64,000 bases of DNA, taken from the IMG/VR virus record IMGVR_UViG_3300033571_007537, positions 26,991-90,990 of that record. The stretch is one strand, 5' to 3'. Positions 21,042 to 47,239 of the stretch are shown here, in pieces. Below the pieces are notes generated by a model, which was given only the letters and a program-made list of their open reading frames with translations, was not told the DNA's origin and made no database searches. The stretch is from a virus. Both the position numbers and the translations under genes were made by a program. How positions within the stretch are numbered: the stretch's first letter is position 1; each line of letters begins with the position of its first letter.

Positions 21042-21056
21042 GGGCTTCTCCTAAAT

Positions 21057-21356: not shown

Positions 21357-21357
21357 C

Positions 21358-22942: not shown

Positions 22943-22995
22943 AACACGCCGAACATCAAACTCAATTTGACAAACTATAAACAAAACCTCATACT
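22943..22995 (+). promoter_or_regulatory. Early-type promoter: AACACGCC box, TTGACA -35, CATACT -10
   Basis: Box 22943-22950, -35 at 22967-22972, 17-bp spacer, -10 at 22990-22995. Confidence 0.8.
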
Positions 22996-23026
22996 TGATA
23001 CATAGCCACTAGAAAGGAAATCACAA

Positions 23027-23287
23027 ATGGCAACTCGCAACTCAATCACCGCAATCGAAACCTATGATGTTCTAGGTGAAACAAAGTCAATCGCACCTAC
23101 CACTCACGCACTAGTAGAGGCGGTAACTTGGACTGAGGCAGGAGCAATCGCTACCGCACTAGACCACATGGCAAGCGACATGTCCGACAGTCCAGCAAGT
23201 CAGGCATACGCCACTTACCTCAGAGGCATTGCCCAGAAGTTCGAGGGCGTTCTAAACGCAATCGCAATCGCTAAGGGCATGGACTAG
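23027..23287 (+). CDS. Small hypothetical protein in a monocistronic cassette
   Basis: Own promoter, GAAAGGAAA RBS and terminator. Confidence 0.8.
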   Translation: MATRNSITAIETYDVLGETKSIAPTTHALVEAVTWTEAGAIATALDHMASDMSDSPASQAYATYLRGIAQKFEGVLNAIAIAKGMD

Positions 23288-23302
23288 CCCCCAGCAACAA
23301 TA

Positions 23303-23331
23303 AACCCCTCTAGCAGGTTGCTAGGGGGGTT
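23303..23331. terminator. Probably bidirectional intrinsic terminator
   Basis: AACCCCTCTAGCA-ggt-TGCTAGGGGGGTT hairpin between convergent genes. Confidence 0.7.
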
Positions 23332-23362
23332 ATTTGCTACTGAGGCGACTTACGGCAAGCCT

Positions 23363-24766
23363 CTACCTAATCTTGAACCCTCCACCATTGCCACCTCTAA
23401 ACGGACTAATCTTGCGAGCACCCATAGAGCGGGCAGTAATCTTGCCACCACTAAACCCAGCAGGAGGCTTGATTAGAAGAGCCGTGAGGGCGTGAACCAA
23501 CGCGTCCACGCGGTCAGGCGACTTGCCCTCTCCGGGAATCCAAGAATACATTTGCGATTCTAAGTCCGTGAGGTACCCGACATGATGGACGCGACCTTGC
23601 TCATAGGCAAGCGTGATAGGTTCTGCCCGCAACGCTTTTCCGTATTTGGAGTGAACCTCTAACACCGTGACGCTAGGGTCTATTGTGTGTATCGCGTTCT
23701 TCACTAATGCTCCACCTTGATTCACCTCCGCAACCACAGGGCAACCCCACTTGCGAGCCATCTCGACCACCCGCATTGCCCAAACATTAGGCGACCCCAA
23801 GACTGAGGCGTCCTCGACCACCCACGCTTGACGCTTATACAAATCTCTATCTGCCGTGCTTGAAACCACTACGATACCGCACTCATCTCGAGGGTTCTCC
23901 GCGACTGAGGGGTCTACCCCAATTACGCGAAGAGGCGTGCTTGAGGGGTAATTGCCGTGTCTATGCTTTTCAATCATTTCCTCAGTCCAGAGAGCACCCT
24001 CAACATTGTCCAACATCTCGCCATAAAGTTCTTGCTTAGCAAGTGAAGTTCCCGCGTATACGCCCAGCATTGTATCCAGATACGCACCAGAGAGGTTACC
24101 CGCATTGTCCAGCGTCGAGCCACGAGTTACGACCACATTGCGACCCTTATCCGCCTCCTCGAGCAACTTGTAGAGCAACGGCACACGCTTAGGAGTTGTA
24201 GTTACGACCATTTTCGGATACGCACCCAAACGAGTTCCAACACGCAAGTTATCAAACGCAGTCATACCAGCCGCGTCGGGAGTCTGCCTCCAAGCCGCAA
24301 TCTCATCTCCCCAAGCGTGAGTGAACTGAGGTCCACGCAGAGAGTCAGGCTCATCAGCAGTAAACAGAGTTGCCGTGTTGCCATTAGGCCAGGTCAGGCG
24401 ACGCTTAGACGGCTCATACAGAGGCTTTTCAGATGGAGGCGAAACATTCATAATCCCAGACTCACCCTCAACGATTACATCTCGCACATCAGCCGCAGTT
24501 CGGGCTACGAGGGCAAAACGGCGTTGCCCAGTTGTAGTGTATTTCGCTTGCTCCCGCACCCACTCAGAGGCGAGGCGAGTCTTCCCAAAACCACGACCCG
24601 CAAGCACTAACCAGATGTTCCAGTCTTCACCCTCAGGGCAGAATTGCTCAGGGCGACCCCAGACAGACCAGTCCCAGAGCAGAGAGTCCGCGTCCATACC
24701 AGCCAGCACCATCGCCCGTTCAGCCTCAGGGAGGTCAGCGATTTGTTCCATTATAGATTTACCCAT
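23363..24766 (-). CDS. terL: Terminase large subunit
   Basis: Walker A LAGRGFGKT, Walker B AWGDE, TTTP coupling motif, nuclease IGVDPS...PDRVDA. Confidence 0.95.
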   Translation of the reverse strand: MGKSIMEQIADLPEAERAMVLAGMDADSLLWDWSVWGRPEQFCPEGEDWNIWLVLAGRGFGKTRLASEWVREQAKYTTTGQRRFALVARTAADVRDVIVEGESGIMNVSPPSEKPLYEPSKRRLTWPNGNTATLFTADEPDSLRGPQFTHAWGDEIAAWRQTPDAAGMTAFDNLRVGTRLGAYPKMVVTTTPKRVPLLYKLLEEADKGRNVVVTRGSTLDNAGNLSGAYLDTMLGVYAGTSLAKQELYGEMLDNVEGALWTEEMIEKHRHGNYPSSTPLRVIGVDPSVAENPRDECGIVVVSSTADRDLYKRQAWVVEDASVLGSPNVWAMRVVEMARKWGCPVVAEVNQGGALVKNAIHTIDPSVTVLEVHSKYGKALRAEPITLAYEQGRVHHVGYLTDLESQMYSWIPGEGKSPDRVDALVHALTALLIKPPAGFSGGKITARSMGARKISPFRGGNGGGFKIR

Positions 24767-24855
24767 CTTCCCAGTCTACCGCATCTTTTCCCGGTCTTCC
24801 GTGTGTTCCCTCCTCCGGGCCGGGCCGCCTTCATCAACTTTTCACGGAGCAACCA

Positions 24856-24907
24856 GACACGCCGAAGAACCTTCCAATTTGACAAACCAAACTTCATAGC
24901 CCATAAT
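24856..24907 (+). promoter_or_regulatory. Early-type promoter with GACACGCC box
   Basis: GACACGCC 24856-24863, TTGACA 24879-24884, CATAAT 24902-24907. Confidence 0.85.
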
Positions 24908-24949
24908 TACTACATAAGCAAAAATGCTTATCCAACCAAAGGAGATTCA

Positions 24950-25309
24950 ATGACCACCACACTAAACACAATAACCGCAACTGCTACTGAATTTGGTTTT
25001 GACGCAGGTATTACTTTCAGCACTCAAGAGCAACTTGATACTTTTATTGCTCTATTCCCAAAATCAACTAAAGTAGTTGCCACTCGCCTCACCACCCTTG
25101 ACGGAGCAACATCTCCGCACGCTACTTTTGGTATTCGCCTAGTCGCAGATAATGTCAATGGCGGAACTAACGAAACAGGTCTCAAAAGACTTCACAAGTT
25201 CGTCGCGGTAGCAACTTCAAACGGATACGAAATCCACAACAACCCTTGCTACGGAAACTCACTAACCCAAGAAGCGTTCGACAAACTAATCGGGAGGGTG
25301 ATTGCCTAA
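24950..25309 (+). CDS. Hypothetical early protein
   Basis: Start reassigned to MTTTLN after an AAAGGAGA RBS; own promoter and terminator (~25331-25362). Confidence 0.8.
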   Translation: MTTTLNTITATATEFGFDAGITFSTQEQLDTFIALFPKSTKVVATRLTTLDGATSPHATFGIRLVADNVNGGTNETGLKRLHKFVAVATSNGYEIHNNPCYGNSLTQEAFDKLIGRVIA

Positions 25310-25589
25310 CGGCAACCCCGCCTCAACAAAGAAGCCCCCGCCCAGAAGCGGGGGTTTTCTTTTACCCGAAGCGAAGCGAAGCACTTGACTTTTTATAGAA
25401 AGCGTGATGACCGACTTTTTTCGCCAACTTCCGGGTTTTCCGTGTGGTCCAGGTTTCCAGGCCCCTTCGCGATTTCCTCATCAAAACTTTTCATCAAAAG
25501 TTAGCCGTATCCCGATTTGACAAAACAATACCGCGTCCCTCATAATTGCTACATAAACAGAAATGTTTATCTGACCCCAAGGAGATTCA

Positions 25590-25916
25590 ATGACCAATTC
25601 AAACACCGCGACTCAAACTGAACTACTAGACGCTTACATGATTGGCAACGGCGACTTCACTGATGTTGCTTGCCTAGACTGTGCCCGCGAGTTCGCAAGA
25701 ACAAACAAACTCAAGTGGGACTCTCCGTCCGAGGACACCTTCACGATTGAGAAGGGGACGGGTGCTTACGCCTCCTACATACACTCCTCCGAGGGTGAGG
25801 CGGACTCTCCGTATTCTTGTTGCGGACTTTACCTCCACACAAACTTCACCACTGAGGGCGAGGTTTACCTAATGGACGAGTTCCCGAGTTGGGTTGCGGA
25901 ACTCTACGGGTTCTAA
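25590..25916 (+). CDS. Acidic Cys-containing hypothetical early protein
   Basis: TTGACA-18-CATAAT promoter, AAGGAGA RBS, terminator ~25931-25960. Confidence 0.8.
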   Translation: MTNSNTATQTELLDAYMIGNGDFTDVACLDCAREFARTNKLKWDSPSEDTFTIEKGTGAYASYIHSSEGEADSPYSCCGLYLHTNFTTEGEVYLMDEFPSWVAELYGF

Positions 25917-26132
25917 CCCGAACACAAACTAGCCCCCTCCAAGTGAGGGGGTTTAGTTTTATCCGCCCGTAAATGCCCCGCTACGCCCCTCAGCGGGTGA
26001 GGGCGACTAACTTTACCTACTACATCACTTCAACCCCTCAGCGGGCGTCCTAGACCCGATTTGACAGATTGACCCCCTAACCCTCATACTTGATACATAG
26101 AGCAGAGATGCTCCCCGACTAAAGGAGATTCA

Positions 26133-26339
26133 ATGAGCAGTTATTACGATTACCAAGATGACGCGGATTACGCGAAGGAGATTTATTGGGAGGCGAAGGG
26201 ACTTGGAAACGCTAATCCTTCAACCGCAACTCCTAACCGCACTCCAGCACCTCAGATTGAATGCGAGAGATGCCACCGCAGAGGTTCAGCAGAACAAGTT
26301 GCTAGCCACAACATCAAATACCCGAACTGTGCTGACTAA
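26133..26339 (+). CDS. Small zinc-finger-like early protein
   Basis: CERC...H...C; own promoter, RBS and terminator. Confidence 0.75.
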   Translation: MSSYYDYQDDADYAKEIYWEAKGLGNANPSTATPNRTPAPQIECERCHRRGSAEQVASHNIKYPNCAD

Positions 26340-26616
26340 CCCTCAGCACTCAAAGATTTCCCCTCGTAGAGATACGGGGGTTTTCTTTTATCCAAACTGA
26401 AGCAGAAGCAGAACACCAGCACTTGACTTTTCACGAAATTCGCGTAGCCCCGGCTATTCCGGGTTTTCCGTGTAGCTTCCCCGCAGCGAGCAACTTTTTA
26501 CGAACTCCTCTTCAAAACTTTTTTTATTAGTCCGCGTGTCGATTTGACAAAATGTATGCCTATACCCCATACTTGATACATAAGCAGAAATGCTTACCAA
26601 CCTAAAGGAGATTCAA

Positions 26617-26856
26617 ATGAAGAAAGTTGTTCTAGTTAGCAAGTCAGAAGGTCAGCGTGGACAGAACGGTAAGAAGAAGGTTTACGAGATTATCGTTGAA
26701 GGAAACAAAGTAGTTCTGTCTTGGGGTATGGCAGAGAAGTCAGTCCGTCAAACCAAGACCGAGTGGTTCAATAACCCTTACTCCGCAGAGAACTTTGTGT
26801 TCGAAAAGCAATGGGAAAAGATTGCTAAGGGCTACGAAGTGGCATACACCGCGTAG
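26617..26856 (+). CDS. WGR-domain-like protein
   Basis: KKVYEI......VVLSWG...KIAKGY pattern; start after AAAGGAGA. Confidence 0.6.
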   Translation: MKKVVLVSKSEGQRGQNGKKKVYEIIVEGNKVVLSWGMAEKSVRQTKTEWFNNPYSAENFVFEKQWEKIAKGYEVAYTA

Positions 26857-26866
26857 CACTTACGAA

Positions 26867-26902
26867 AAGACCCCCTAGTCGAAATGACTGGGGGGTTCTT
26901 TC
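26867..26902. terminator. Bidirectional terminator where plus- and minus-strand early cassettes converge
   Basis: GACCCCCTAGTC-gaaat-GACTGGGGGGTT flanked by A and T runs. Confidence 0.75.
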
Positions 26903-26911
26903 GTATCTGGA

Positions 26912-27496
26912 TTACCGCACTCGGTTCTTCTCCAAAATAGGGTGATAGACCTTGCTAGTTCCATTACTAGGTTTTAGGTAGCCGTATCTGGCAAGTCTAA
27001 ATCTAATCGCACCGTGAGTAGTTCCTAACCGCTTACCTAATCTGTAAAGCGTTACGCCCTCTGTTGTGTGTGAGTAATTTAGTAGCCTCGTGTATTCTTC
27101 TGCCTCTGCCCTAAACTTTGGTGAATTAGACCGCACCTTGCGTGCTAGAGGTTGAAGTTCTAGCAGTCGTGCCAAAGTTTCTGGCGAAGGTTCAATGTAA
27201 ACTGGTGAAGGTTTTACGGGCTTCAATGGAAGTTCTGGAATAGTTAGTCCATAAGATTTCGTAAGTTCTTCAGCAGTCGAAGCGTCAGTAATTTTTGCCA
27301 CTTGGCGAACTCTCTCCCTTGACCAATGGAATAGTTCAGCGACACTTTGTAATGTCCACCCGTGATTTCTCAATGTGGTTGCGTAAGCGTTTCGTATTTC
27401 TTTCCACTCCGCAGTCGGAAGTGTTGCGTGAAGTTTCGCAACATCAGTCGCAACCTCAGTTGGAAGTTGGTGATTATTTTTCTTGAATTGAGTCAT
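26912..27496 (-). CDS. Double-HTH DNA-binding protein
   Basis: GWTLQSVAELFHWSRERVRQV (sigma region-4-like) and GVTLYRLGKRLGTTHGAIRFRL; start reassigned to MTQFKK. Confidence 0.75.
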   Translation of the reverse strand: MTQFKKNNHQLPTEVATDVAKLHATLPTAEWKEIRNAYATTLRNHGWTLQSVAELFHWSRERVRQVAKITDASTAEELTKSYGLTIPELPLKPVKPSPVYIEPSPETLARLLELQPLARKVRSNSPKFRAEAEEYTRLLNYSHTTEGVTLYRLGKRLGTTHGAIRFRLARYGYLKPSNGTSKVYHPILEKNRVR

Positions 27497-27601
27497 TTTG
27501 TTTTTCTTTCTCCGAGTTTTGTCCCGGTTTTCCGTGTTGAACTTTTGACGAAGAAGAAGCGGGACGCTGAGGTCCCGCACCTTCTTCAGTTTGGTTTGAT
27601 T

Positions 27602-27988
27602 TTAGAAGCGACGATTGTGATAAAAGTCTGAGTCCGAGATTGATTTTCCCGTTTCTTCTTCGAGTTCTATCTTCTCCGCACCGAGCATAATGCCCCATAC
27701 ATCGGATAGAAGATGAGCAAAGTTCTTACCGCGAGTTTGATAAACGCGGTTCTTGAAGTTTGGATAGTCAATCTTCAACGCTTGTTCCGCAACCCACGCT
27801 GACCACTCTGAGTCCTCGATGATTACTCTATACGGGTAGTCCGTATTAGTCTTCTTGATAATCTTCGCACCCGTAAAGTCCACGATGCTTCTGAGGGATT
27901 TCTTGTCCCTCGCACGAACTGTGATTTCGTCTTTGTCATTTTTGTATCGAATCGCCGAAACGAATCCATTTTCAGTAAATAGCCACAT
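27602..27988 (-). CDS. Phage hypothetical protein (MWLFTENGFVS...)
   Basis: 128-aa ORF with a GAGG-like element upstream. Confidence 0.7.
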   Translation of the reverse strand: MWLFTENGFVSAIRYKNDKDEITVRARDKKSLRSIVDFTGAKIIKKTNTDYPYRVIIEDSEWSAWVAEQALKIDYPNFKNRVYQTRGKNFAHLLSDVWGIMLGAEKIELEEETGKSISDSDFYHNRRF

Positions 27989-29198
27989 AAGTATTTGTCC
28001 TCTCGTCTTTGTGTCTTACCGCAAGGAGAAATCTACTCCTTGCTAATCAAGTCTTGAGTTATGCCCTTACGGCGTTATCACAATGTTATCATTTACACTT
28101 GTGCTTGTCAAGCCCGGAGATTTAGGACGGCAAGAGCAAGCGCAGAAGCACCCAGTCCCACTACCGCAGACAGTTCTCCTCCGACTAACACCAGCACAAT
28201 AGTCCCAGCAACAAGAAGCAAAGACCCAACAGCAGTCCAAGCAACCTCCCGCAGTAAAGCGAATAATCTATTCATTTCTTTTTCTCCTCAGTTTGTTTTG
28301 GAAGCACAACTCCCAGAAGGGGTTGAACCTTTCTTGATTTTCTCTCCACCCAGATAACAATCCCAGTAGTGAGCAACGCTGAGGCGACCAGCACCGCAAC
28401 GAGAAGTTGAGTAGCGTCGAAGTTAGTCATCGTCTAGCCCACTCTCCGTGCCCTCAACGAACACCGCAGTAATCATCGCCAGCACAAATACCCCAGCAAG
28501 AATTCCAAATCCGCCCAGTATCCATAAAAAGATTTCCATTGTTTCTCCTAAATCATTTGACACATCACACTCTAACATAAAAATCTTCTGAGGCACCATC
28601 TTTTCCGGGTAGTCCGTGTAGCTTCCGCCATCGCACAAAAAACTCCCTCACCCTGAGGCGAGAGAGTTCTTCGATTTTGTTTACGCTAGTTCAGGTTTCT
28701 TTATTCTGACCATACGCCTAACTCGAAAGTTGGCGTCAATTGGAATTATTCCCGCACGCATAGCCCAGTAAAACAGTTCATACTCCTTGCGAACCGCAAA
28801 CTTATCCAGTTCAGCAATTCTTTCTTGCGTTAGTTTCTTTCTCATTTGATTTCCTTTCACTTGTTATAACTACTTATCTTTGAGATTTATTCCCGCCCTA
28901 GAACGACGCTTACGCTTAGGCGGAACATAGAAGTAATTCACCCACAAAGACCGCGACACGACCGCGAGGAGGGCGAACCCAGTAGCAACCGCGACCATTG
29001 ACAGAACCAGCACAGTTGATTTGTCCATTGACTATTTCCCCGCTTTCTTTCTGAGGTCAAAGTAATAAAGAACTAGCGACTGAGCAATCAAAATAGTTCC
29101 GAGTCCCGCACCAATTACAAACGAGTTCACGCCCTCTGAGGTTGCCCCAACAAAGTAAGCGAACGCCCCAAGTAGGAATACTAAATACTTCAACATAA

Positions 29199-29417
29199 CT
29201 AGCCCACCTTTCTTGCCAAGTTCAAAACTTGTGGAGCAAAGGTTAGGAACACCGCACCTAGTCCACCAATCCAAAGTCCAGTTGCCCAAACTTCACTAGC
29301 ACTTGAACTAGCACCCGCACCCGCACCTACCATCAACGCGTAAGCAAACAAGTAAGCACCCGCAACGAACGGAACTGCTATTAGTCCTACTACTGCTCTA
29401 CGAAAATAAAACTTCAT
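29199..29417 (-). CDS. Small two-TM membrane protein, first of a small membrane-gene cluster
   Basis: Hydrophobic 72 aa, AAAGGAGA RBS. Confidence 0.7.
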   Translation of the reverse strand: MKFYFRRAVVGLIAVPFVAGAYLFAYALMVGAGAGASSSASEVWATGLWIGGLGAVFLTFAPQVLNLARKVG

Positions 29418-29658
29418 TTATTTCTCCTTTTGTCTTTTAGTCTTTCGACTTACTACAAAGGTAGCACATAACCCAATTGAACGCAAGTCCATTTCACCTC
29501 AGCGTGTCGCACTTGACAAAAGTCTTCCTTCGTGAAAAGTCTTCCTCCGTAAAAAGTTGAACGAGTTAGGCAACCCTAACTTTTCCGGGTGCTCCGTGTG
29601 AAGTCCCCGCGTCAAAAAAAAAATCCCCGCCATTTCTGACGGGGAAACTTTTTACTGA

Positions 29659-29847: not shown

Positions 29848-29997
29848 TTGAGTTCCTTTCTTGAACTACTACAATGGTAATGCTTTTGTTTAGGTTTGTC
29901 AAGTTCATTTGACGGCGTGTCGTGAATAACAAAATCCCCCCTGCTGTGTGCTGACAAGGGGGATTTTTTGAGTGTGTCCGACACTCGGCGGGTTCTT

Positions 29998-30186: not shown

Positions 30187-30398
30187 TTGAGTTCCTTTCT
30201 CGAACTACTACAATTGTATTGCTTTTGGTGTTGCTTGTCAAATCCAAAACATTTACGGCGTGTTGTGAACTTCGTGAACACTAACCCGCACTCGTGATAA
30301 TCCCTCTGAGATTGCCCACTCGTGAACTCGTGCTTCGGCTTCGCGTTCTGTATCTGCTTTTACTAAGAAGATGTTTCCGTATCCATTTACCTCGAACA

Positions 30399-32241: not shown

Positions 32242-32404
32242 TTTGTTTTCCTTTCTATTGACTACAATTACTATCTTACGCGTTCAATCGGCGTTTGTCA
32301 AATTAGACACGCCAAAGGTAAAACCCCCCTACCTAAAGGAAATCTAAAAGGTAGAGGGGTTTTGAAGGAGGGGCTGGTTAGGAGCAACCCCCTCCTCCAA
32401 CTTC

Positions 32405-32731: not shown

Positions 32732-33066
32732 TGGTTATCTCTTTCTGTTAGGTAAGCATTTCTGCTTATGTATCTAAGGTAGCCTATTTGATTTGATTTG
32801 TCAAATCCATTTGGTTCTCGGCGTGTCGTTTGTTGTTGCCTCCCCCTCAGCCCGACCTAAGGAATAAATCTGAGGGGGAGGTTTACCAATCAACCAACCA
32901 AGGGAATCAACCTTGATAACTAAAAGATACCATCTCAGGTTTCGTTTGTCAAATCGAGATGGGACGGCGTTCTTCGTAAAAAGTTGAAGGGAAGCACCAG
33001 CCCACACGGAACTCCGGGAAGAGGATAAAAAGAAACCCGACGAGATTTCTCCCATCGGGTTTTCTT

Positions 33067-34116: not shown

Positions 34117-34608
34117 TATTGCTTCTCCTCTTTCTGTTATTACTAAGGTATCAAGTAAAAAGATGTTTGTCAAATCCTGAGTCTGACGGCGGGTCGTCAA
34201 AAGTTTTCCGGGGGTTCCGTGTGCGTCTTCAAACAAAAAAGAAACACCCGCGTTCCCGCGAGTGCTTCCCTCGAAACTTTTACTGCTTGAGATGACCCTT
34301 GAGGAAATTACTCGGGTGTCGAGCAATACTTGCTTCAAGCCCCTTTGGGTCTGGGTTCGGCACACCTGCTTCGCTTGAAACAACTATAATTCGATACTTT
34401 GTTCCTGACCAACTCAGGAACGCCATCGCATAATCTTTCGCTTCTTGCTGAGTTGCGAACTCGTAAGGGAGAACTCCCTGCTTAGTTTCTACTTTGAAAA
34501 TCATTTGTTTCCTCTCTTTCTGTATCAAGTATTACAAATACTTTTAGTTTTGTCAAGCCCGACACGCGGTAAAACCCTCACCTTTTGATGAGGGTTTCCG
34601 CGTAGCCC

Positions 34609-34881: not shown

Positions 34882-35105
34882 TTTTATTTTCCTTTCGTTG
34901 GCTATGTATCAAGTATAGGGTTTATGCCCGCATCTGTCAAATCCAAACTTTGAACGGCGTGTCCCATAAAAAGTTGCGAAGGGAGGGCCGAGATGCTGAA
35001 CTTATCCGGGGCTTCCGTGTGGAGGGACGCGGCGGAAAAACTTTTCACGAAGAAAAAAAAACACCCCCTCCCAAATCGGGAGGAGGCATTTTTATTTAGC
35101 AGAAC

Positions 35106-35899: not shown

Positions 35900-36149
35900 A
35901 ATTTGTTCCTTTCTCGAACAATTACTACATTAGCCTAAATCGGCGTTGATGTCAAATTAGAAAGATTACGGCGTGTCGTCTTTTTCTTCTCCTTCCTCTT
36001 TTTCTTTTTACGAGTTCCATCAAAAGTTGCGAAGGGACGCAAGGCGTCTTGCGAGTTTTCACCAACCGCGACTTTTCCCGGTGTTTCGTGTTGCCCGCAC
36101 ACATAAAAGAAAGCCCCCGCATTTCTGCGGGGACTTCCTCAACCAACCC

Positions 36150-36365: not shown

Positions 36366-36490
36366 TTTTATCTTCCTCTCTCTGGGTGATGTATCTATTG
36401 AACCATACTTACCGCAATAAGTCAAATCTCGTGCCTCCCCGCGTGTCGCGAGGTTGAGGGCGGGTTTCCCCGCCCCCTCGCTCACCGCCC

Positions 36491-36805: not shown

Positions 36806-37081
36806 TTGTGATTTCCTTTCTAGTGGCTGATGTATCTATTGAACCACAACTGATTACATTTGTCAAATCGAACTTGCCTCTGGCGTGTCGCGTGTTTGTT
36901 CAGTTGTGTAGTTCTTTGGTGCTAAGTCAATTATGAGGGACTACATACCTTTTTGTCAAATCGAGATTTGATGAGAGATGACGCAACTTTTCACGAAGCG
37001 AAGCGAGGCACACGGAAAACCAGGAAACGGGTAAAAAGAAACCTCGCATTTCTGCGAGGCTTCTTCGTGAAAACTTACAAA

Positions 37082-37974: not shown

Positions 37975-38478
37975 TTGTTTTCCTTTCTTCGGGTCTACTA
38001 TCTATTATACAGATTTGTTGCTGATTGTCAAATCACGCTAACGGCGTGTCGCCATTACTCGTTCTCTGTGTCTTTGATGAATTGCTCAAACGCCTCGTCT
38101 ACTTCGGGGTCGTATAGCCACGCCAAGAAACCCTTGATGTCTGGCTTGTCTGTGTTCAACCCAAAGTTCGGGTTTAGTAGTTCGTCCTGAGTTCTTTTCT
38201 TTTCTGTCATTTTGTTTTCCTTTCATTAGATAGAACACTTTGTCTTTGTGATTTATTCCCGAACTTCCAAAACTTTTTTCTAATCCAGAAAGTTCCGTGA
38301 GTTCGGCAGAATACTTTGTGCTTACAAGGGACTAGGACTAGCGTTCCATAATCCTTTGGTTCTTTGAGCAAGCCCATAGCAAATAGTTCTGCCATTTCTG
38401 CGTCGCCTTTTTGTTCAACAAACATAGATTTCCTTTCTCTAATAAAGATAACCAAATTACTTTGTGATTTATTCCCGA

Positions 38479-38715: not shown

Positions 38716-38910
38716 TTCTGTTCCTTTCTCGAACTTACTATCTATTATACAGATTTACTTGGTGTTGTCAAATCTATTTCTATTCGGCGTGTTCTGGACA
38801 ACGACAACAATTCACGCAGAACTCCTGAGATTGGTCGCAGGAGAACTTGTCCATCCAATCCTTGCCACAATCGTCGCAGGGAGGGAATACTCGTCCAAAG
38901 ACTTCTGCCA

Positions 38911-39135: not shown

Positions 39136-39320
39136 TTGGTTCTCCTTTTCTATGTATCAAGTAAATCATAATTGTATTCTTTTGTCAAACTGAGGAAAAC
39201 TTCGGCGTGTCATCTCATCTCGTAAAAAGTTGTGAAGGCGAATACTTCTCCGGGATTTCCGTGTGAACTGACGGCAAAAAAGAAACCCCGATTTCTCGGG
39301 GCTTCCTCTATGGCGTGTTG

Positions 39321-40083: not shown

Positions 40084-40178
40084 TTGTATCTTCCTTTTCT
40101 AGTTGGTGTATCTCTTGATGTATCTATTGAACCATAGTTGCTCGTATTTGTCAAATCGAGTCAAACTTCGGCGTGTCG

Positions 40179-40711: not shown

Positions 40712-40895
40712 TTTTGATTTCCTTTCATTTGGCTTTATGTCTCTATTGAACCATAAATCTATCTTCGTGTCAAATCAAGTTGTCATCTGGCGTGTCGCAA
40801 CTTTTCATCAAAAGTTGGAAGCCCCTTCGCTTCACACGGAAACTTGGGAAAACTTGAAAAAAGAAAGAGGCGGGATTTCTCCCGCCCCTCTCTGT

Positions 40896-41412
40896 TTAGA
40901 GTTCTATCGACCACTCCGAAAGCAGAGTGATTTCTCGTTTCAGCGATTTGTCGCCATTGTAGAGAACTTCGTTCCTGATTACCTCAGCAACATTGTCCCT
41001 GACATACTCCAAGAACAACTCCTCGTCAAAGAGATACTCGTGGTCTAAGAAAGAGTTTGGAGATTTCTCCTGCTCTTGCTGATACCTGATTTCCAAGAAC
41101 TGGTCTAGGGTCTGTTGCGTGTTGTAAGACACGTTTATCTGACCCGTTATGCTCTGCCCAGTTTCCTCCAAGAAATGCTCTATGGCGGTCTTACGCGTAA
41201 CCTCGTCATCCTGATTAGGCATCCGTTACCTCCCTCCACTGGTCGTGTCCTTCGAGCAGGCTCAGAGACGAGCCGTTGTCCCAACGGACGTAAATCTGTG
41301 TATCTCCCCAGGGGTCTACGCGCTCGCCGATTTGTGTTCCACGGTCGCCTGCCTTGAGGTTCGTGTAAGGGTCGTTGGTGAATACCAACTCAATACGCTT
41401 GCCGTTGTTCAT
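40896..41412 (-). CDS. Two small proteins (41215-41412, DUF4314-like SH3-type; 40896-41222, acidic)
   Basis: DPYTNLKAGDRGT....D.WG...YVRWDNGSSLSL pattern. Confidence 0.65.
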
Positions 41413-41503
41413 TTTCTTTCCTTTCGTTTAGGTGTTGCGGTTCTATTATACAGATGTTTCGTGAAAAGTCAAACTCGCCCGAAGGCGAGCCGACTTCCAC
41501 TTT

Positions 41504-41983
41504 TTACCAACTGGACGAGTATTGGAAATCCCATCCGTCAAACTTTGGGTTGTTGAGAACCCTGTCAAGTTGTGTGATGGTGTGGGTTATCTGGTAGGTA
41601 TACCATTCCTCGTCATCACCTCCGTAAGGGTCTGGTAGCAACTCGTCCGCACTCTCAGGGTTATCCAGAACTTGCTGGCAGAGATTACGCAGGTCTATCA
41701 GCGTATCGCGTGAGACGTAGTAGTCCTTACAGTTGTCCTCGCCGTCTTGGACGTTAGCCACGAACCAGTTGTGAACTCCCCACGCCTTTCGCCACTGAGC
41801 GACTTTGATTTCAACAGTTGCTGATGGATACTCGGTGTCCACGTCGTCAGCAGTTAGTCCTGCTCCTACAACTACGTCTATGTATTTAGGGTTGTCCTCT
41901 GAGATGTAATCTCCCTCAGGGGTTCGTCTGTGATTTGTTCCAGAGATGTATTCTCTAACGTGTAGCCATTGGTCTAGTCCCAT
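41504..41983 (-). CDS. Phage hypothetical protein (MGLDQWL...WRK..GVHNWF...YSSSW)
   Basis: 159 aa; own GACACGCC promoter at 42036-42062. Confidence 0.75.
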   Translation of the reverse strand: MGLDQWLHVREYISGTNHRRTPEGDYISEDNPKYIDVVVGAGLTADDVDTEYPSATVEIKVAQWRKAWGVHNWFVANVQDGEDNCKDYYVSRDTLIDLRNLCQQVLDNPESADELLPDPYGGDDEEWYTYQITHTITQLDRVLNNPKFDGWDFQYSSSW

Positions 41984-42112
41984 TTTATTTTCCTTTCATT
42001 GGGTTATGTTTCTATTATACAGATTTCAATCTGAATGTCAAATCCATTTACTTCGGCGTGTCAAGTTTTGATGGGGGAGGAGTTTTGGAGAAGACCTCCC
42101 CCACCAAGTTTG

Positions 42113-43936
42113 TTATGCGTTCCTCGCACCAATCTTTGTGAGAGCGTCGGCACAAGCCTTGCCAATCAGCGTGGCAGTTTTGTTCGGGTCAGTATCAACA
42201 TTGACCAACTGTCCATCTGTGTTTTCAAGGTAGCGTTTCGCATAGTGAGCGTAATCGTAAGTCAGCCACAGGACAGCCACGCCATTCTTCTGGCACTCTT
42301 TCATCCAATGTCTTGCTCGCTCGCCCTCAGTCGCAGTGTAAGCACCATCAGAGACCACGACAAGCAATCTCGCACCTGAGCCATAGAGCAAGTTCAAAGT
42401 CCCATCAAGAGCCTTGAAAGCCTTGTCGAACTTTTCAGTTCCATCTGGTGCGGAATAAACATTGACATCTGTCAAGTGCTGTCCCGGTTTCAAAGTCGGG
42501 AATACATCTGAACCAAAGTAGACCATTGCTGATTTACCCTGAACACGACGAACAGCCTCAGACATTACCCAAGCAGTCGTAGCCATAGGTTTCATTGCTG
42601 AACCCATTGAACCTGAGATGTCCACCATCACGCCAACAGTCAGAGTTGGGTCGTCAGTTTGCTTTCTCTTGGTCTGTCTCCACGCCTCAACCTGAGTGTG
42701 AATACCCTTGCTCTTTAGAGCAGAACCCTGAACCAACGCACGAGTGCGAAGACGACCGGGAGGCAAGATGTTCTTGACCTCAGTCTCAGAGCGTTCGCGA
42801 TACTTTGCTTGCTCTAACATCTTTGCAATCTTGACTGCTGAGATACGTTCCTCAGAAGTTGGCTTGCGAACTTCGACCAATCTCGACATAGTTCCAGAAC
42901 CCGGTTCTCCCGGTCTGTGTCCATCAACGAAAACTTTTTTTGCCTCTTTTTCATTTTCGCTTTTTGTCTTTGATTGACTTGAAGATTGACTTACAGAGTT
43001 TGACCATTCAGTCGCAGTCTGCTCGTCAGCGACCTCAGTCGCAACTCCAATGCTAGTGTTGCCAGCAGACTCAGCGAGAGCCTCCATCAAATCTCCGAAC
43101 GCGTCGCCTGTGCCTGAGCCTCCGCCCTCACCCCAAGAGCAACCATCTTCGCCCTCGCCCTGCTCGTCGCTAGGTTGAGGTTCGCCAGCCTCGACTGAAA
43201 TGTTGTTCACAACTTCAACCCACTCGCGAGCAAGGTCGTAAAGTGGCAGACCATTTTCGTGCTGTGAGTGTGCCTGAAAACGCAACCAGATTGAACGCAA
43301 CTTTTCAATGTTGTCGTAGCCCAAGATACCAGCGATAGCAAGTTCAGCAGGTTCGACATCAAAGTCTTCAAGAACGCCAGCGTCTACGCGAGCCAAAGTT
43401 AGACCAGCCATACGACTTGCCATACGAACATTTGATAGACCCTCGAAATCTTTAGCGTCGCCAAGAACAATCTCCAACGCACAAGCACGAAGAAAAACTT
43501 TGTTGGCAGGAATAACAGTTACGCCCCAGCCCTCAATGCGAGTCTCTTCCAAAAGATGTAGAGCCTCGTATTCTTCTTTGGTCAGAGCCTTGCTAGCGTC
43601 TTCCAATGAGTAGCGTGAAAAGCGAGCGTGGCTTGCCTCGTGATAGATTGCTCCAGTTCCCTTAGCGAACTCCAACTGGGTCTCGCGTGATGTGATGTCT
43701 GTGATGTGTTCTGGCAAAGTGAAAGCACCAAAAGCACTCTCAGTGTTTACTTCAATTTCCGCACTCGCAGGATTGAAGATTGCTGGTGCTGGTGCGCTAG
43801 CCTCTGGTCCAACGAAGACTACTAAGTCTCCGCGTGACGACCAAGTGTTTGCGAGCGTTCCAATCTGAGAACCCACCTTTAGCCATTCGCTAGGTGTGGT
43901 CTTTTTTGTTTCTACATTAGTTCCGAAGTGTGTCAT
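42113..43936 (-). CDS. Metallopeptidase-like (HExxH) plus von Willebrand A domain protein, CobT-like partner of a MoxR ATPase
   Basis: HEASH motif; MIDAS DISGSM, T (GTE) and D (VVSDG); start reassigned to MTHFGT. Confidence 0.85.
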   Translation of the reverse strand: MTHFGTNVETKKTTPSEWLKVGSQIGTLANTWSSRGDLVVFVGPEASAPAPAIFNPASAEIEVNTESAFGAFTLPEHITDITSRETQLEFAKGTGAIYHEASHARFSRYSLEDASKALTKEEYEALHLLEETRIEGWGVTVIPANKVFLRACALEIVLGDAKDFEGLSNVRMASRMAGLTLARVDAGVLEDFDVEPAELAIAGILGYDNIEKLRSIWLRFQAHSQHENGLPLYDLAREWVEVVNNISVEAGEPQPSDEQGEGEDGCSWGEGGGSGTGDAFGDLMEALAESAGNTSIGVATEVADEQTATEWSNSVSQSSSQSKTKSENEKEAKKVFVDGHRPGEPGSGTMSRLVEVRKPTSEERISAVKIAKMLEQAKYRERSETEVKNILPPGRLRTRALVQGSALKSKGIHTQVEAWRQTKRKQTDDPTLTVGVMVDISGSMGSAMKPMATTAWVMSEAVRRVQGKSAMVYFGSDVFPTLKPGQHLTDVNVYSAPDGTEKFDKAFKALDGTLNLLYGSGARLLVVVSDGAYTATEGERARHWMKECQKNGVAVLWLTYDYAHYAKRYLENTDGQLVNVDTDPNKTATLIGKACADALTKIGARNA

Positions 43937-44092
43937 CTTTCTTCTCCTTTTCTGATAACAACACAAAGGTATCATCTTTTGATACTTTTGTCAAATCCTT
44001 TCGAGGGGGTGGGAATGGGCGTGTCGGGGAACAACGCCCACTCCCTCTCGACCAACTAGATGAAAGGAAGTAAATCTAGTCGGGAGTCTGTG

Positions 44093-45097
44093 CTAAATCT
44101 TCGCTGGCTTGTATTCTTCGCCAAAGGTTCTGGTGAAGACATCAGCCACGATTGGTCTATCCATTTCTGGAGCAGACGCAATCAGGTTAGAGATAGCGAA
44201 AGCAGTTCCGAAGTCATTAGCAACATCTCGGAAAGCAAGCAGTTCACGCATTTGAGGCGACCAAGAAACTTCGCCTGACTGTTGTTTCTTGAACAAGTTT
44301 TGAGCAACAGTCACTACTGGTGCTGGCGCACCTAACTTGCGAGCAAGTGTCCAATCAGTAGTCATTTCTGCGTGAAGTGTGAAACGCGATAGCAGAGCCT
44401 CAGAGAGACGAACTCCCGGAGCGTTAGGGTTAGTCGCACCCAACACATAGAAACCCTCTTTGGCTTTTACAGTTCCGCGTTCTGGGTTCTGAGTAACTGT
44501 GTATTCCTGACGACCATCCATCAGACCATAAACAATCGAAAGAACCTTTGGGTCAATGAGACCAACCTCGTCAATCAGAAGTGGCTTACCCTCTTCCGCA
44601 GATTTTAGTAGAGGTCCATCTACCCATTCGAACCCACCACTTGGTGTCTGAACATAACCACCAACGAGGTCTGAAACCTCAGTGTCTCCAGAGCCAAGAA
44701 TTGTGTAAAGGTCTTCGCCAAAAGCGGCCTCGACCAATGCTGTCTTGCCACAACCGGGCGCCCCATAGAGCAGGATGAAGTGTCCAGCAGTGCGAGCCTT
44801 TTTCAAGACCTCGACGTCTGAGTGTTCACCCCAAGCACGAGAGAAGTAAGCCTGACCATTTGGTCGCAGGTATTGGCTCTCGCCAACCATTGCGTCTGCC
44901 ACGATAGTCTTCACTTTCTTTGCTGTGCCTGAACCGCGTTGAGTAACCTTGCCAGCAATGTTGTAGTAAGAGTTGAGTTTGTCTTTCAACTCTGAGTTGA
45001 GCGACTGACCAGCAACAGCAAACAATGCGTCTGCTACCCCTGTGCCAAGCCTGTCTTGCTTGATGATGTCCTGTAAATCTGTATCTGTATAAACCAT
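44093..45097 (-). CDS. MoxR/CobS-like AAA+ ATPase
   Basis: GAPGCGKT, LLIDE, ATNP, LSEALLSRF; start reassigned to MVYTD. Confidence 0.9.
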   Translation of the reverse strand: MVYTDTDLQDIIKQDRLGTGVADALFAVAGQSLNSELKDKLNSYYNIAGKVTQRGSGTAKKVKTIVADAMVGESQYLRPNGQAYFSRAWGEHSDVEVLKKARTAGHFILLYGAPGCGKTALVEAAFGEDLYTILGSGDTEVSDLVGGYVQTPSGGFEWVDGPLLKSAEEGKPLLIDEVGLIDPKVLSIVYGLMDGRQEYTVTQNPERGTVKAKEGFYVLGATNPNAPGVRLSEALLSRFTLHAEMTTDWTLARKLGAPAPVVTVAQNLFKKQQSGEVSWSPQMRELLAFRDVANDFGTAFAISNLIASAPEMDRPIVADVFTRTFGEEYKPAKI

Positions 45098-45146
45098 TGT
45101 ATCTTCCTTTCTAGTAATGGTCTTGTGTTGCTGTGTTGCTGTGTTT

Positions 45147-45632
45147 CTATTCTGCCATAGCGAATAGGTTTTTGTCAAATCCAAGTGCCTCGCGTGAACG
45201 CAAGACTCTACGAATGAGACCCTGTGGTGTGCTTTGTGAACGCACTAGTGCTAAGTCTTCGAATGAATACTCAACTGCGACAGGTTGCTTTTGTAGTGTC
45301 CAACCCTGATGATGAACCTGCGACAGAAGTGGCTGAATAAATGCCAAGCCCTGCTGTGCGAAGTGCTTAGCCTCAGAGAGTTCGTATTCTTTGAAAGTGC
45401 CATCTGGGTTACGAACAACATTTCGCAATGCTCTGTCTGCTGTTCTCGCACTGTCAAATCTCCAAGACTTGCGTGGGTGGTGTTCTGAAATCTGTCGTCG
45501 CATAAGCGTCGTAGTTCTTAGTTCACCATTTTCATCCACGACCTCTGGGGTCAGGATGATTTGTAGGGTGTAGTCCCCTCGACGGAACTCTAGGTAGAGT
45601 GCCTTTCCTAATACTGTGTTCTTGTCCATCAT
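45147..45632 (-). CDS. Hypothetical protein upstream of the AAA+ ATPase
   Basis: 161 aa; GACACGCC promoter at 45683-45712. Confidence 0.7.
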   Translation of the reverse strand: MMDKNTVLGKALYLEFRRGDYTLQIILTPEVVDENGELRTTTLMRRQISEHHPRKSWRFDSARTADRALRNVVRNPDGTFKEYELSEAKHFAQQGLAFIQPLLSQVHHQGWTLQKQPVAVEYSFEDLALVRSQSTPQGLIRRVLRSREALGFDKNLFAMAE

Positions 45633-45867
45633 TTATTTTCCTTTCGTTGATGTGTTACAAGTAAATCATAAATCTTGTTGCTTGTCAAATCGAACTACTT
45701 GTTCGGCGTGTCGCCATTCTTGTAGAAGTCGAGTAGTGCCTCAATGACTCCGCACTGAGAGCAAATCTCAGTTTCGTTGTCCTTGCGTGAGAGCGCACCT
45801 GCGTATGCTCCCGGAGTTTCATTGTTCGGGATGAACCCCTCACAAATCGGACAGATTGGAAACTCAC

Positions 45868-46068
45868 TCAAGGGAGTTCCTCCAAACTGTCTTGGTAAAC
45901 CTCTGTTGAGATTCCGTGATTTCTGTCGTCGAACTCTGGAAGTTCGTCCGAGCCAATCTCGTCCTCTGCCCACTGGCGAGCCAGTTCCTTCGCGTGTTCA
46001 AGATTGTCAGCATCAAATGTGCCTTTCCATTCTTCAATCACGTCGAATCTAATAAAATACTTTGGCAT
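45868..46068 (-). CDS. Small acidic protein (paralog of 39686-39889)
   Basis: Shared MPKY....EE....F.ADNLEHAK.L. Confidence 0.7.
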   Translation of the reverse strand: MPKYFIRFDVIEEWKGTFDADNLEHAKELARQWAEDEIGSDELPEFDDRNHGISTEVYQDSLEELP

Positions 46069-46154
46069 TGCATTCTCCTTTCAAAAGAACTTGTATAACT
46101 AAGTAAACACTATTTATTCAGTTTTGTCAAATCGAGACTACTCTCGGCGTGTCG

Positions 46155-46657
46155 TTAGGTGTTGCTCATAAAGACGAAAGTGTCTTCGCCATTTATTACT
46201 GCCTTTACGAACTCGAACATTTCGCTTTCTGCGAGGTTGTTGAAAATCTCCCACTGGTCTTCGTTGAGGTCGTCTTCGTTGAAGATAACCACATCTCCTT
46301 GACCCTGTGAGCCATCTTCGGCAATCCAGCACTTGTTCTCTATCACCTGTGATTTTTGGTTTTCCATCAGCGAGCCTCCCCTGCGTGTTGCTTTGCGTAG
46401 GAGTCTAGTGAACTTAGGAAGTCGTCGAGACCCTCCATCTCAACAGATGGGACGCAGGTGTCAAGATACCTGACTAAGTCTGAGTAGAGATGTTCTACCT
46501 CGTCGCCAGTTGGCTCGACCCAATCTATCTCGTTGTTGGTCAGCGAGTAACTCGCGAACTTTTCACCAGTTGGTAGGAACGCGTTTAGGCGAACCTCTGC
46601 TAGTTCAGTGTTTGTTGCGAACTTCATTTTGTAGTTAGTCATTTGTTTTCCTTTCAT
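46155..46657 (-). CDS. Two small acidic proteins (46367-~46642, 46155-46367)
   Basis: Coupled ORFs after a TTGACA promoter near 46694. Confidence 0.6.
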
Positions 46658-46704
46658 TGACTATGTATCTATTGAATCATACTTCTTTGGATTTGTCAAA
46701 TCGT

Positions 46705-47121
46705 CTAATACTCGGCAGGTGTGATGTTTGTGCCAAGTTCCATTGCGAGTTTGTAGATGTTTGTGAGGTCAATAGTTCTGGTCTCACCCTTGTTGTTGTA
46801 AGCGACTGCGTATCCAGAGATGTAACGAAGTTTCTCTGCTCCAGACTCCATAATGATTGCGACCCATCCATCTTCTAGATGTGCTTGGAAAATCTTGTCC
46901 CAGTTGATTTCAAGGTATTCACCATCCTCGTCTGAATACTGAGAGTATGGAAAGCCACTGCCATCAGGGTCAGTGCCTAGTAGCCCAACAAGTTGGACGC
47001 CATCCTTTTCCTGAGTAATGATTTCTACATCATTTGTAACTGCGTTGATGTCAGTAGTGAATGCTTCAACGTCCTTCACTAGGAAGTAGTTGGTTCTTGC
47101 TGATGCGTAATAGTTTGCCAT
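46705..47121 (-). CDS. Phage hypothetical early protein (MANYYASARTNYF...)
   Basis: Rightmost GACACGCC cassette (47176-47203). Confidence 0.75.
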   Translation of the reverse strand: MANYYASARTNYFLVKDVEAFTTDINAVTNDVEIITQEKDGVQLVGLLGTDPDGSGFPYSQYSDEDGEYLEINWDKIFQAHLEDGWVAIIMESGAEKLRYISGYAVAYNNKGETRTIDLTNIYKLAMELGTNITPAEY

Positions 47122-47239
47122 TTGTTTTTCTCCTTTTCATTGGCGTAAGAAGAGTATGGCGTCTTTTATACAATTTGTCAAATCGACGTGAACGTGGCGT
47201 GTCGTAAGGGGTTTAGAGTTTTCCCAAACTTCCGTGTGG

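Follow-up and report, generated by a model that had tools for sequence, protein, structure and literature searches.

Some 20 promoters in the phage DNA analysed here (a window of 64,000 nt) carry, upstream of the -35 element, a short box that on its sequence is a candidate WhiA-type binding site. The box is the 8-mer GACACGCC or a one-letter variant of it. There is a somewhat better than even chance that its common reader is host WhiA, in concert with WhiB on sigma A; the binder is deduced from the sequence of the box and its distribution among related phages. A preliminary description of this DNA had interpreted the promoters as one half of a dedicated cis/trans pair, the other half being a WhiB-WhiA fusion encoded by the phage. 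The WhiA-type site and the fusion itself (its domains and residues) stood up to analysis; the dedicated pairing did not, since box and fusion do not co-occur across related phages.

The promoters belong to an array with a common layout: gATTTGACA, a spacer of 16-18 bp, a -10 element, a conserved start region of the type aGATACATA, and GAAAGGA as ribosome-binding site. The genes behind them are short and mostly orphan, and a Pfam search of 20 array proteins revealed no DNA-binding domain beyond that of a 194-aa double-HTH protein. The array promoters serve small genes that are probably expressed early. The positions of the array, the boxes and two phage proteins are as follows ("gap" is the distance from box end to -35 element).

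22943-48182, no strand assigned: promoter array, about 32 strong sigma-A-type promoters, about one per kb
22346-22353, plus: exact box at the start of an A/C-rich non-coding tract, without a consensus -35 behind it
22918-22925, plus: exact box closing the A/C-rich tract, 25 bp upstream of the 22943 box and in tandem with it
22943-22950, plus: variant box AACACGCC, 16 bp upstream of TTGACA at 22967
24856-24863, plus: exact box GACACGCC, 15 bp upstream of TTGACA at 24879
26544, plus: -35 element abutted by an inverted near-copy of the box
26912-27496, minus: double-HTH protein of 194 aa (Sigma70_r4-like), encoded at the array edge
29914-29921, minus: exact box, 11 bp upstream of TTGACA (29897-29902)
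30257-30264, minus: variant box AACACGCC, gap 15 bp
32306-32313, plus: exact box, inverted, 4 bp from the -35 of a minus-strand promoter (32296-32301)
32820-32827, minus: exact box, gap 15 bp
34188-34195, minus: variant box GACCCGCC, gap 14 bp
34556, minus: -35 element abutted by an inverted near-copy of the box
34956-34963, minus: exact box, gap 15 bp
35970-35977, minus: exact box, gap 14 bp
36440-36447, minus: variant box GACACGCG, 14 bp upstream of TTGACT (36420-36425)
36882-36889, minus: exact box, gap 15 bp
38043-38050, minus: exact box, gap 11 bp
38786-38793, minus: variant box AACACGCC, gap 14 bp
39204-39211, minus: exact box, gap 15 bp
40170-40177, minus: exact box, gap 15 bp
40789-40796, minus: exact box, gap 15 bp
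42055-42062, minus: exact box, gap 13 bp, promoter of a VWA/CobT-like gene (42113-43936)
44018-44025, minus: exact box, gap 23 bp, the class about one helical turn farther out
45705-45712, minus: exact box, gap 16 bp
46146-46153, minus: exact box, gap 15 bp
47196-47203, minus: exact box, gap 14 bp
62520-63044, minus: gene for a 174-aa fusion of WhiB and the WhiA C-terminal HTH, candidate second box reader

Exact copies of GACACGCC number 18 in the window, whereas 100 dinucleotide shuffles averaged 1.27 and never exceeded 4. All 18 are intergenic, although about 70% of the region from 22 to 47.5 kb is coding. Among the over-represented 8-mers of the whole contig GACACGCC ranked second, after ATTTGACA. 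The initial 27 kb of this contig were searched for composites of box and TTGACA, and none was found.

Upstream of a -35 element the box occurs 20 times, as 15 exact copies and five one-letter variants (AACACGCC three times, GACACGCG and GACCCGCC once each). The gap ranges from 11 to 23 bp with a mode of 15: 15 bp at nine sites, 14 at five, 16 and 11 at two each, 13 and 23 at one each. This bears out the near-fixed spacing at about 20 promoters given in the preliminary description, whose 15 exact copies were all recovered in position and strand. Its four variants are real (AACACGCC at 22943 on the plus and at 30257 and 38786 on the minus strand, GACACGCG at 36440 on the minus strand before TTGACT), and its distances from GACAC to TTGACA, mostly 17-19 bp with a mode of 18 and outliers of 14, 16 and 26, were reproduced exactly. 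To these sites we add three exact copies (22346, 22918 and 32306, all plus), a variant (34188, minus) and two inverted near-copies next to the -35 elements at 26544 (plus) and 34556 (minus). In the modal geometry the box begins 23 bp before TTGACA and 46 bp before the -10 element, and it occupies roughly -59 to -52 on the non-template strand. Gaps in the main class run from 11 to 16 bp, more play than would be expected of a rigid complex.

The phage consensus, cGACACGCCg, spans 8-10 bp. The WhiA consensus of M. tuberculosis, obtained by ChIP-seq and in vitro IDAP-seq, is GACACGCC, that of an earlier ChIP-seq study was CGACACGCCGn, and a one-hybrid study in M. smegmatis gave cGACACGc as the WhiA site (all PMC13473873). 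The general WhiA core is GAYACRCY (PMC11701221), and a conserved site, CGACACGCC(C/T)GA, lies upstream of rpsJ in Mycobacterium, Streptomyces and Micrococcus (PMC11701221, supplement); we confirmed an rpsJ-type site about 245 bp upstream of rpsJ in one Nocardia locus. The phage box equals the M. tuberculosis consensus and also fits GAYACRCY and the rpsJ sites, in a phage whose host is itself only deduced to be actinobacterial. The earlier identification of GACAC as the WhiA core thus holds, and the likeness is longer than that core, taking in the whole of cGACACGCCg; identity over 10 bp makes convergence unlikely. The phage box lies in promoter regions and is selectively retained; at orthologous promoters of related phages the box is invariant and the flanks are unalignable. 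No paper on WhiA boxes at phage promoters was found in the literature.

In the sepX complex of S. venezuelae (PDB 8DY7/8DY9), GACAC upstream of the -35 element on the non-template strand is read by the C-terminal domain of WhiA, and WhiB is located on sigma-A region 4 (PMC10243135). The phage promoters have the same recognition sequence as sepX and the M. tuberculosis WhiA/WhiB2 regulon (GACAC; GACACGCC in M. tuberculosis). Compared by sequence and order, they also resemble sepX-type promoters in the place of the site, upstream of sigma-A-type -35 and -10 elements and on the non-template strand. By analogy, the phage promoters would be expected to have WhiB bound to sigma-A region 4 and the box occupied by the WhiA HTH. 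A scan of genome contigs for the sepX promoter pattern gave chance matches only.

Based on this comparison, we propose that the C-terminal HTH of WhiA would read GACAC(GCC) as it does in the sepX complex, that WhiB (WhiB2), bound to sigma-A region 4 immediately before the -35 element, would form a bridge to WhiA, and that the two would jointly stabilise RNA polymerase at the phage promoter. Reading by host WhiA and WhiB is compatible with all data. However, host WhiA sites vary, those of Streptomyces in both orientation and distance (PMC10243135; PMC3781837), whereas the phage genome has some 20 sites that share one orientation and keep a nearly constant distance, in phase with the DNA helix. 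Host WhiA is thus not known for fixed spacing, which counts against this reading, as does the loose gap within the main class.

Related phages were compared for the box and for its possible readers. Box-bearing promoters were found in 17 of 54 non-redundant related loci. Among the 431 promoter-like sites of the 54 loci, 29 had a direct box no more than 40 bp upstream, compared with 2 for the inverted box, 0 for the reversed word and a mean of 0.45 for shuffled 8-mers. The gaps of the 29 fell mostly into two classes about one helical turn apart, 10-16 bp (17 sites) and 22-23 bp (8 sites), and one orthologous promoter switches class through an exact 10-bp deletion. In the cultured Microbacterium phage A3Wally, the genome of which is complete, box start and -10 element are 46 bp apart at four promoters and 56 bp apart at another. 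Its box promoters have weak -35 elements (TTGCAC, TTGGTT, TTGTGC and TTGTAC), as expected for activator-dependent promoters, and we infer that the box acts in activation. By its large terminase, the present phage is nearest to the freshwater phage DSL-LC01 and to Microbacterium phages, which suggests an actinobacterial host.

A WhiA HTH was looked for in the complete A3Wally genome and not found, and none of 50 records of related phages, including five with a completeness of 90% or more, yielded HTH_WhiA. Contig G049 (90% complete) also carries boxes without a WhiA HTH. The reverse was seen in phage G001-G003, which encodes the fusion with a conserved recognition helix and has no box at its approximately 19 array promoters. 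The check for co-occurrence of box and fusion put forward in the preliminary description therefore failed. Because there are box-bearing relatives without a WhiA-type HTH and a fusion-bearing relative without promoter boxes, host WhiA is the likeliest common reader.

That the phage encodes a WhiB-WhiA fusion was confirmed. The protein is a single chain of WhiB domain, 37-residue helix and WhiA HTH, with Pfam scores of 56.8 bits for Whib and 37.3 bits for HTH_WhiA, both above the cut-offs. With the DNA-reading residues of S. venezuelae WhiA as a reference (PMC10243135), most are conserved: R266, L274, K287 and R295 are kept and R293 is replaced by K. In the predicted model a long helix is followed by the HTH at pLDDT 78-89, and the top fold matches are WhiA (3HYI, 8DY9_I) and WhiB1. 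The fusion probably reads the same boxes, and would do so tethered to sigma-A region 4; it is most likely an optional second reader beside host WhiA. If it does occupy the boxes, the promoters could become independent of host WhiA/WhiB levels, or the fusion could compete with the host proteins.

A stronger role for the fusion is conceivable but doubtful, namely that it is a single-chain sigma-appropriation factor that binds host sigma-A region 4 through its WhiB domain, uses its helix of about 55 Å as a ruler and places the HTH on GACACGCC two turns upstream. Parts of such a design are known. WhiB7 offers an analogy as a single chain with a Wbl domain that binds sigma-A region 4 and a C-terminal DNA reader, in that case an AT-hook binding just upstream of the -35 element; the fusion differs in having a WhiA-type HTH on a long helix, and its target would be a specific GC-rich box some 15 bp away from the -35 instead of an adjoining AT-rich tract. 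In sigma appropriation by phage T4, AsiA on sigma-70 region 4 and MotA on the MotA box of middle promoters likewise redirect the host primary sigma holoenzyme through a region-4 binder and the reader of a fixed-position box. However, T4 uses unrelated proteins and a box that takes the place of the -35 element; the phage studied here keeps a consensus -35, and its reader may be a host protein. If the fusion does work in this way, it would hold host RNA polymerase at about 20 phage promoters without need of host WhiA and WhiB2, and displacement of WhiB2 from sigma A would turn host division genes off. Its arrival in this lineage would also have driven the rise in box number, from the few to ten of a related genome or locus to about 23 per genome.

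We consider it unlikely that the boxes are a dedicated regulon with the fusion as principal reader on sigma-A region 4 and host WhiA at most as a starter. The conserved DNA-reading residues fit such a role, and the predicted helix roughly matches the distance of 15-18 bp from WhiB to box. The box load of this phage (18 exact copies and five variants) is far above that of any relative examined (10 or fewer per genome), and the promoter of the fusion gene (TTGACT at 63097-63102) has no box, so the fusion could be made first. Against this, box and fusion dissociate in both directions, as G049, A3Wally and the 50 records on one side and G001-G003 on the other demonstrate. In addition, the modal distance of 46 bp from box to -10 element is identical in A3Wally, and near-fixed spacing in phages that lack the fusion cannot be a property of the fusion.

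It also seems improbable that the WhiA-type sites are mainly negative or titrating, whether through late shut-off of early promoters by WhiA or the fusion or through a soaking-up of WhiA, by the many box copies on replicating phage DNA, that blocks host division. WhiA does repress many host genes (PMC3781837; PMC11701221). The box-bearing promoters of this phage already have consensus -35 and -10 elements and need no activator, so that an activator may add little and repression, timing or titration is possible instead. At three promoters an inverted box abuts the -35 element, where WhiB would be expected to sit, which has a repressive look. Boxes also form tandem clusters unconnected with promoters, in the A/C-rich tracts of four phage sequences (this phage, G002, L335 and G030). 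A precedent is the WhiB protein of mycobacteriophage TM4 (WhiBTM4), reportedly an inhibitor of host WhiB2. Like the fusion it is encoded by a phage, and as a Wbl protein it acts against the WhiB2/WhiA cell-division circuit of the host, but it is a stand-alone WhiB without a WhiA HTH, and WhiA boxes on phage promoters have not been described for it. However, the helical phasing, the 10-bp indel between orthologues and the weak -35 elements of A3Wally are typical of activation from a fixed face and not of decoys, and a site at about -55 lies outside the RNA polymerase core footprint.

Finally, it is highly improbable that another phage protein reads the box and that the likeness to WhiA sites is convergent: the 194-aa double-HTH protein, an alternative binder already named in the preliminary description, has a Sigma70_r4 domain and a gene at the array edge, and region-4-type HTHs, like the WhiA C-terminal domain, read GACA-containing elements (PMC10243135), but the protein is present in complete genome G008 without box enrichment (2 copies versus 3 for the control), has a homologue in DSL-LC01, again without enrichment, and was not detected in box-rich G049, and a match over 10 bp is unlikely to arise by convergence.

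With host WhiA and WhiB as the readers, transcription of about 20 phage units would be tied to two essential host cell-cycle regulators. In M. tuberculosis, these proteins also govern ribosomal-protein, replication and division genes. These phages thus seem to couple their early genes to the cell-cycle switch of the host.

The window covers the final 64 kb of a viral contig (uncultured; 90,990 bp) that is ~53% complete by CheckV estimate. Its main parts are:

1-22 kb, minus strand: structural module
23363-24712: large terminase, just past the structural module
22.9-48 kb: array of densely packed short genes, most of them orphans
beyond 48 kb: genes of lysis type and others, among them the gene for a WhiB+HTH_WhiA fusion at 62520-63044

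The structural module (minus strand) encodes very large proteins of 1452 aa (14333-18691) and 3211 aa (4381-14016). Based on the large terminase, the nearest cultured relatives are "Actinomycetia phage DSL-LC01" from freshwater (75% identity) and Microbacterium phages of ~190 kb (59-63%), from which we infer that the host is an actinobacterium, possibly a member of the Micrococcales. Within the early array, a MoxR-type AAA ATPase (AAA_5) is paired with a VWA/CobT-like protein (42113-45097, minus strand). This conserved pair is also found in DSL-LC01 and ~80 related viral contigs and was used here as a marker for the phage group.

The word GACACGCC was present in 18 copies in the window, against 1.27 expected, and all 18 exact copies were intergenic in a region that is ~70% coding. 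Its extended consensus is cGACACGCCg, with CGACACGC and ACACGCCG present in 16 copies each. Between 22.9 and 52.7 kb, ~32 promoters belong to one family, consisting of gATTTGACA, a 16-18 bp spacer, the -10, a conserved start region resembling aGATACATA, a short leader, a GAAAGGA ribosome-binding site and ATG. At 20 of these ~32 promoters the box (exact or with one mismatch) was found in promoter orientation. The distance from the end of the box to TTGACA was 15 bp at nine promoters, 14 bp at five, 16 bp at two, 11 bp at two, and 13 and 23 bp at one each; the modal distance from box start to -10 is 46 bp (8 + 15 + 6 + 17). A re-scan returned all exact-box coordinates and the four variant boxes of the preliminary description, and adding three bases to the distances measured here gives its GACAC-to-TTGACA gaps. 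Three further promoters, at 26544 (+), 32301 (-) and 34556 (-), have the box inverted, 3-4 bp from the -35.

In a subclass of the promoters, mostly on the plus strand and lacking a direct box, the leader opens with a conserved small AAGCAGAAATGCTT-like hairpin, a few bases past the start region, which may be a signal for RNA stability or processing:

24925-24945, 25565-25585, 26110-26128 and 26592-26610, plus strand: leader hairpins
32740-32760, minus strand: leader hairpin

Between 22878 and 49325 there are also ~18 copies of another repeat, TTTTCCgGGnTTTCCGTGTG ('Box A', ~22 bp). It is usually located 20-50 bp upstream of the WhiA-type box, often directly past a terminator hairpin, and its end, CCGTGTG, is the reverse complement of CACACGG, which is similar to the WhiA core. 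Examples are:

24799, 25440, 26468, 28614, 29594, 30910, 34217, 35015 and 39259, plus strand: Box A
33009, 37015, 40839 and 47278, minus strand: Box A

Independent of the direction of nearby genes, 14 of the ~18 copies are on the plus strand, and this polarity suggests that Box A does something different from controlling promoters. The word CGACGTCG, adjoining the promoter of the fusion gene, was rejected as a promoter motif; it is a palindrome found mostly inside genes.

The earlier identification of GACAC as the WhiA recognition core was correct (PMC3781837, PMC10243135), and the match extends further, to the full 8-10 bp consensus. For Mycobacterium tuberculosis WhiA, ChIP-seq and in vitro IDAP-seq both yielded the 8-bp consensus GACACGCC, and the WhiB2 ChIP-seq motif is the same; an earlier ChIP-seq study gave CGACACGCCGn as WhiA consensus (PMC13473873). 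Across bacteria the general WhiA core, read by the HTH domain, is GAYACRCY, and CGACACGCC(C/T)GA precedes the rpsJ operon in Mycobacterium, Streptomyces and Micrococcus (table in PMC11701221). The word of these rpsJ sites was also found ~245 bp upstream of rpsJ in one Nocardia genome. Over 9-10 positions, the sequence of the phage box thus equals that of the WhiA site of actinobacteria. In almost all of 121 actinobacterial genomes (12 of them unpublished, on which no claim rests) CGACACGCCNGA was more frequent than the reversed word, but several inspected sites were intragenic (GAC-ACG-CCC-GAC codons), making this control inadequate. A scan of viral contigs for GACACGCC-N10-16-ATTTGACA gave mostly single chance matches among the matches listed. 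Only chance matches were obtained when genome contigs were scanned for CCAGAT..GACAC..GCCAATT, a pattern meant to find the sepX promoter, on which the Streptomyces venezuelae WhiA-WhiB complex was determined (8DY9).

The AAA ATPase within the array (44093-45097) was used as a query, matching 80 related viral loci at 59-72% identity; removal of near-duplicates left 54 loci (969 kb) with 431 promoter-like sites. A direct GACACGCC was located at most 40 bp upstream of 29 of the 431 sites, versus 2 for the inverted box, 0 for the reversed word and an average of 0.45 for shuffled 8-mers of the same composition, and 17 of the 54 loci had at least one box-bearing promoter. Two classes of gap between box and -35 were apparent: 17 sites had 10-16 bp (mode 13-14) and 8 sites had 22-23 bp. 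For one orthologous promoter, box, -35 and -10 were invariant despite an upstream flank that could not be aligned. At another, one phage had an exact 10-bp deletion between box and -35 compared to two others, converting the 23-bp class into the 13-bp class. Taken together, the gap classes, the conserved box and the 10-bp deletion read as the signature of a protein that has to bind on one defined helix face with respect to RNA polymerase. DSL-LC01, the nearest GenBank phage, shares the gene order and differs in GC content; it showed no box enrichment (7 copies versus 7 in the control) and lacks the fusion.

In the cultured Microbacterium phage A3Wally (MZ150783), seven boxes, five of them intergenic, are located between 6 and 14 kb, within the terminal repeat. 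The first base of the box was exactly 46 bp from the start of the -10 hexamer in four of these five and 56 bp in the fifth, so that the modal distance is common to A3Wally and the phage of the window. The box-bearing promoters of A3Wally have a weak -35 (TTGCAC, TTGGTT, TTGTGC, TTGTAC, TTGCAA), whereas promoters without a box in the same region have TTGACA; such a contrast is what activator dependence would be expected to look like. Because the seven boxes are present with identical spacing at both genome ends (6013-13783 and 185234-193004 in MZ150783.1), a direct repeat some 15 kb long or longer is implied at the termini, with the box-bearing early promoters inside it.

Pfam recognised both halves of the 174-aa fusion above the cut-offs (Whib, 56.8 bits; HTH_WhiA, 37.3 bits). 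The WhiB half retains its four cysteines as well as the motifs FFP and GVWGG. Compared to S. venezuelae WhiA (8DY9 chain I), R266, L274, K287, D288, R295 and R296 are kept and R293 is replaced by K, the recognition helix being SKDSVAGKLRR in the fusion and TKDAVAGRIRR in WhiA; mutagenesis has shown that the kept residues matter for reading GACAC (PMC10243135). In the structural model the WhiB half, predicted without its cluster, is poor, and a 37-residue helix (82-118) and the three-helix HTH are good (pLDDT 78-89); the best fold matches were WhiA (3HYI and 8DY9_I), followed by WhiB1 in complex with sigma-A region 4. Full-length alignments place at least about 45 clusters (50% identity level) in the fusion family, and both domains were present in all four distant clusters checked. 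With both domains, the DNA-reading residues and a WhiA-like fold present, the fusion can very plausibly read the box. A related phage, represented by the records G001-G003, encodes the fusion with 48% identity and a conserved recognition helix. A metagenome scan yielded one further full-length copy; as its identity (48%) and match length equal those of G001-G003, it is probably from the same phage. Mycobacteriophage Rey gp79 (26% identity over the full length) was rejected as a model, having only the WhiB domain in Pfam and a single box in its genome.

The preliminary description had proposed the box and the fusion as a dedicated pair. Co-occurrence across related phages does not bear this out, as the two dissociate in both directions. 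A search that detected HTH_WhiA in G001-G003 gave no match in 50 related records, five of them at least 90% complete, and the WhiA HTH is also absent from the complete A3Wally genome. One of the records without it, G049 (118 kb, 90% complete), has 10 boxes (control, 0), four of which precede promoters; its only WhiB-type genes encode a plain WhiB and a WhiB with a zinc-ribbon tail. Conversely, the fusion-bearing phage G001-G003 has an array analogous to that of the window (L139, G002:8846-21134, minus strand), and none of its ~19 promoters has a box. Each consists of AAATTGAAATT, a small hairpin (xxGCTCCGCxx), ACAGAATAA, an A-rich stretch, cTTGAC, a 17-bp spacer and TAgACT. As L139 carries the AAATTGAAATT/ACAGAATAA element instead of the box, the upstream element of early-gene arrays turns over between related phages. 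Outside coding sequence, phage G001-G003 has boxes only in an A/C-rich repeat tract, namely three in tandem and one variant. The distribution of box and fusion would be explained by a host protein found in every actinobacterium and not by a phage-specific reader. Another phage candidate, a Sigma70_r4-like protein with two HTHs, is present in the box-poor G008 and DSL-LC01 but was not detected in the box-rich G049.

The zinc-ribbon WhiB of G049 (182 aa; 20830-21378, equal to L351:1192-1740, minus strand) has a C-terminal zinc-ribbon-like segment (CPYC...CTSC) and a basic tail, by its sequence a different way to give a phage WhiB a DNA- or protein-binding appendage.

In the proposed mechanism, the C-terminal HTH of host WhiA would bind at about -59 to -52, where the box lies. 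Region 4 of sigma A would carry WhiB (WhiB2), which would occupy the space just upstream of the -35 and bridge to WhiA, as in the sepX complex, and RNA polymerase would thereby be recruited or stabilised. In phages with a weak -35, WhiA/WhiB would be necessary for transcription; at the consensus promoters of the window's phage they may make these more competitive, determine timing, or link early transcription to the host's state of growth. Transcribed from a promoter of its own that lacks a box, the fusion gene would supply a single protein that could replace host WhiA/WhiB or compete with them.

Clustered boxes in A/C-rich tracts may have a titrating role. In the window, a 500-bp non-coding tract (22410-22930, plus strand), nearly free of G and T and rich in ACAC, AGACAC and CCCAGAC units, is flanked by boxes at 22346 and 22918/22943. 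A similar repeat tract is present in G002 (3800-4300), with three tandem GACACGCC copies, and tandem boxes 18-21 bp apart were found in two other related viral sequences (L335:10105-10150 and G030:22416-22444). Possible roles of such tracts are as landing pads or decoys for WhiA, or as an origin-like structure.

In Actinobacteria, genes for division, replication and ribosomes are controlled by WhiA and WhiB (WhiB2), two essential regulators that are conserved in pathogens. The WhiA motif and the WhiA/WhiB mechanism were already known; what appears to be new is the setting in phages, the fixed and phased geometry, and the fusion into a single chain. Full-text searches of literature outside subscription journals, among it an actinophage survey of WhiB and Lsr2, found no paper on WhiA boxes in phage promoters. 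How a short asymmetric WhiA site gives specificity in the host is a puzzle because host sites vary in orientation and distance, whereas the phage boxes have one orientation and a preferred phased distance. Dozens of phage promoters have the full 8-10 bp site at a modal 46 bp from the -10, with a second class about one turn further out, and this geometry defines an optimal, directly testable arrangement. Bench tests of the idea are possible with A3Wally and its host, Microbacterium foliorum, and for structural work the WhiB-WhiA(HTH) fusion family offers a minimal WhiA/B module that already exists. The findings suggest that lytic actinophages tie their early programme to the growth and division state of the host through a host factor; a subset of these phages goes further, combining two host-type regulators in one chain.
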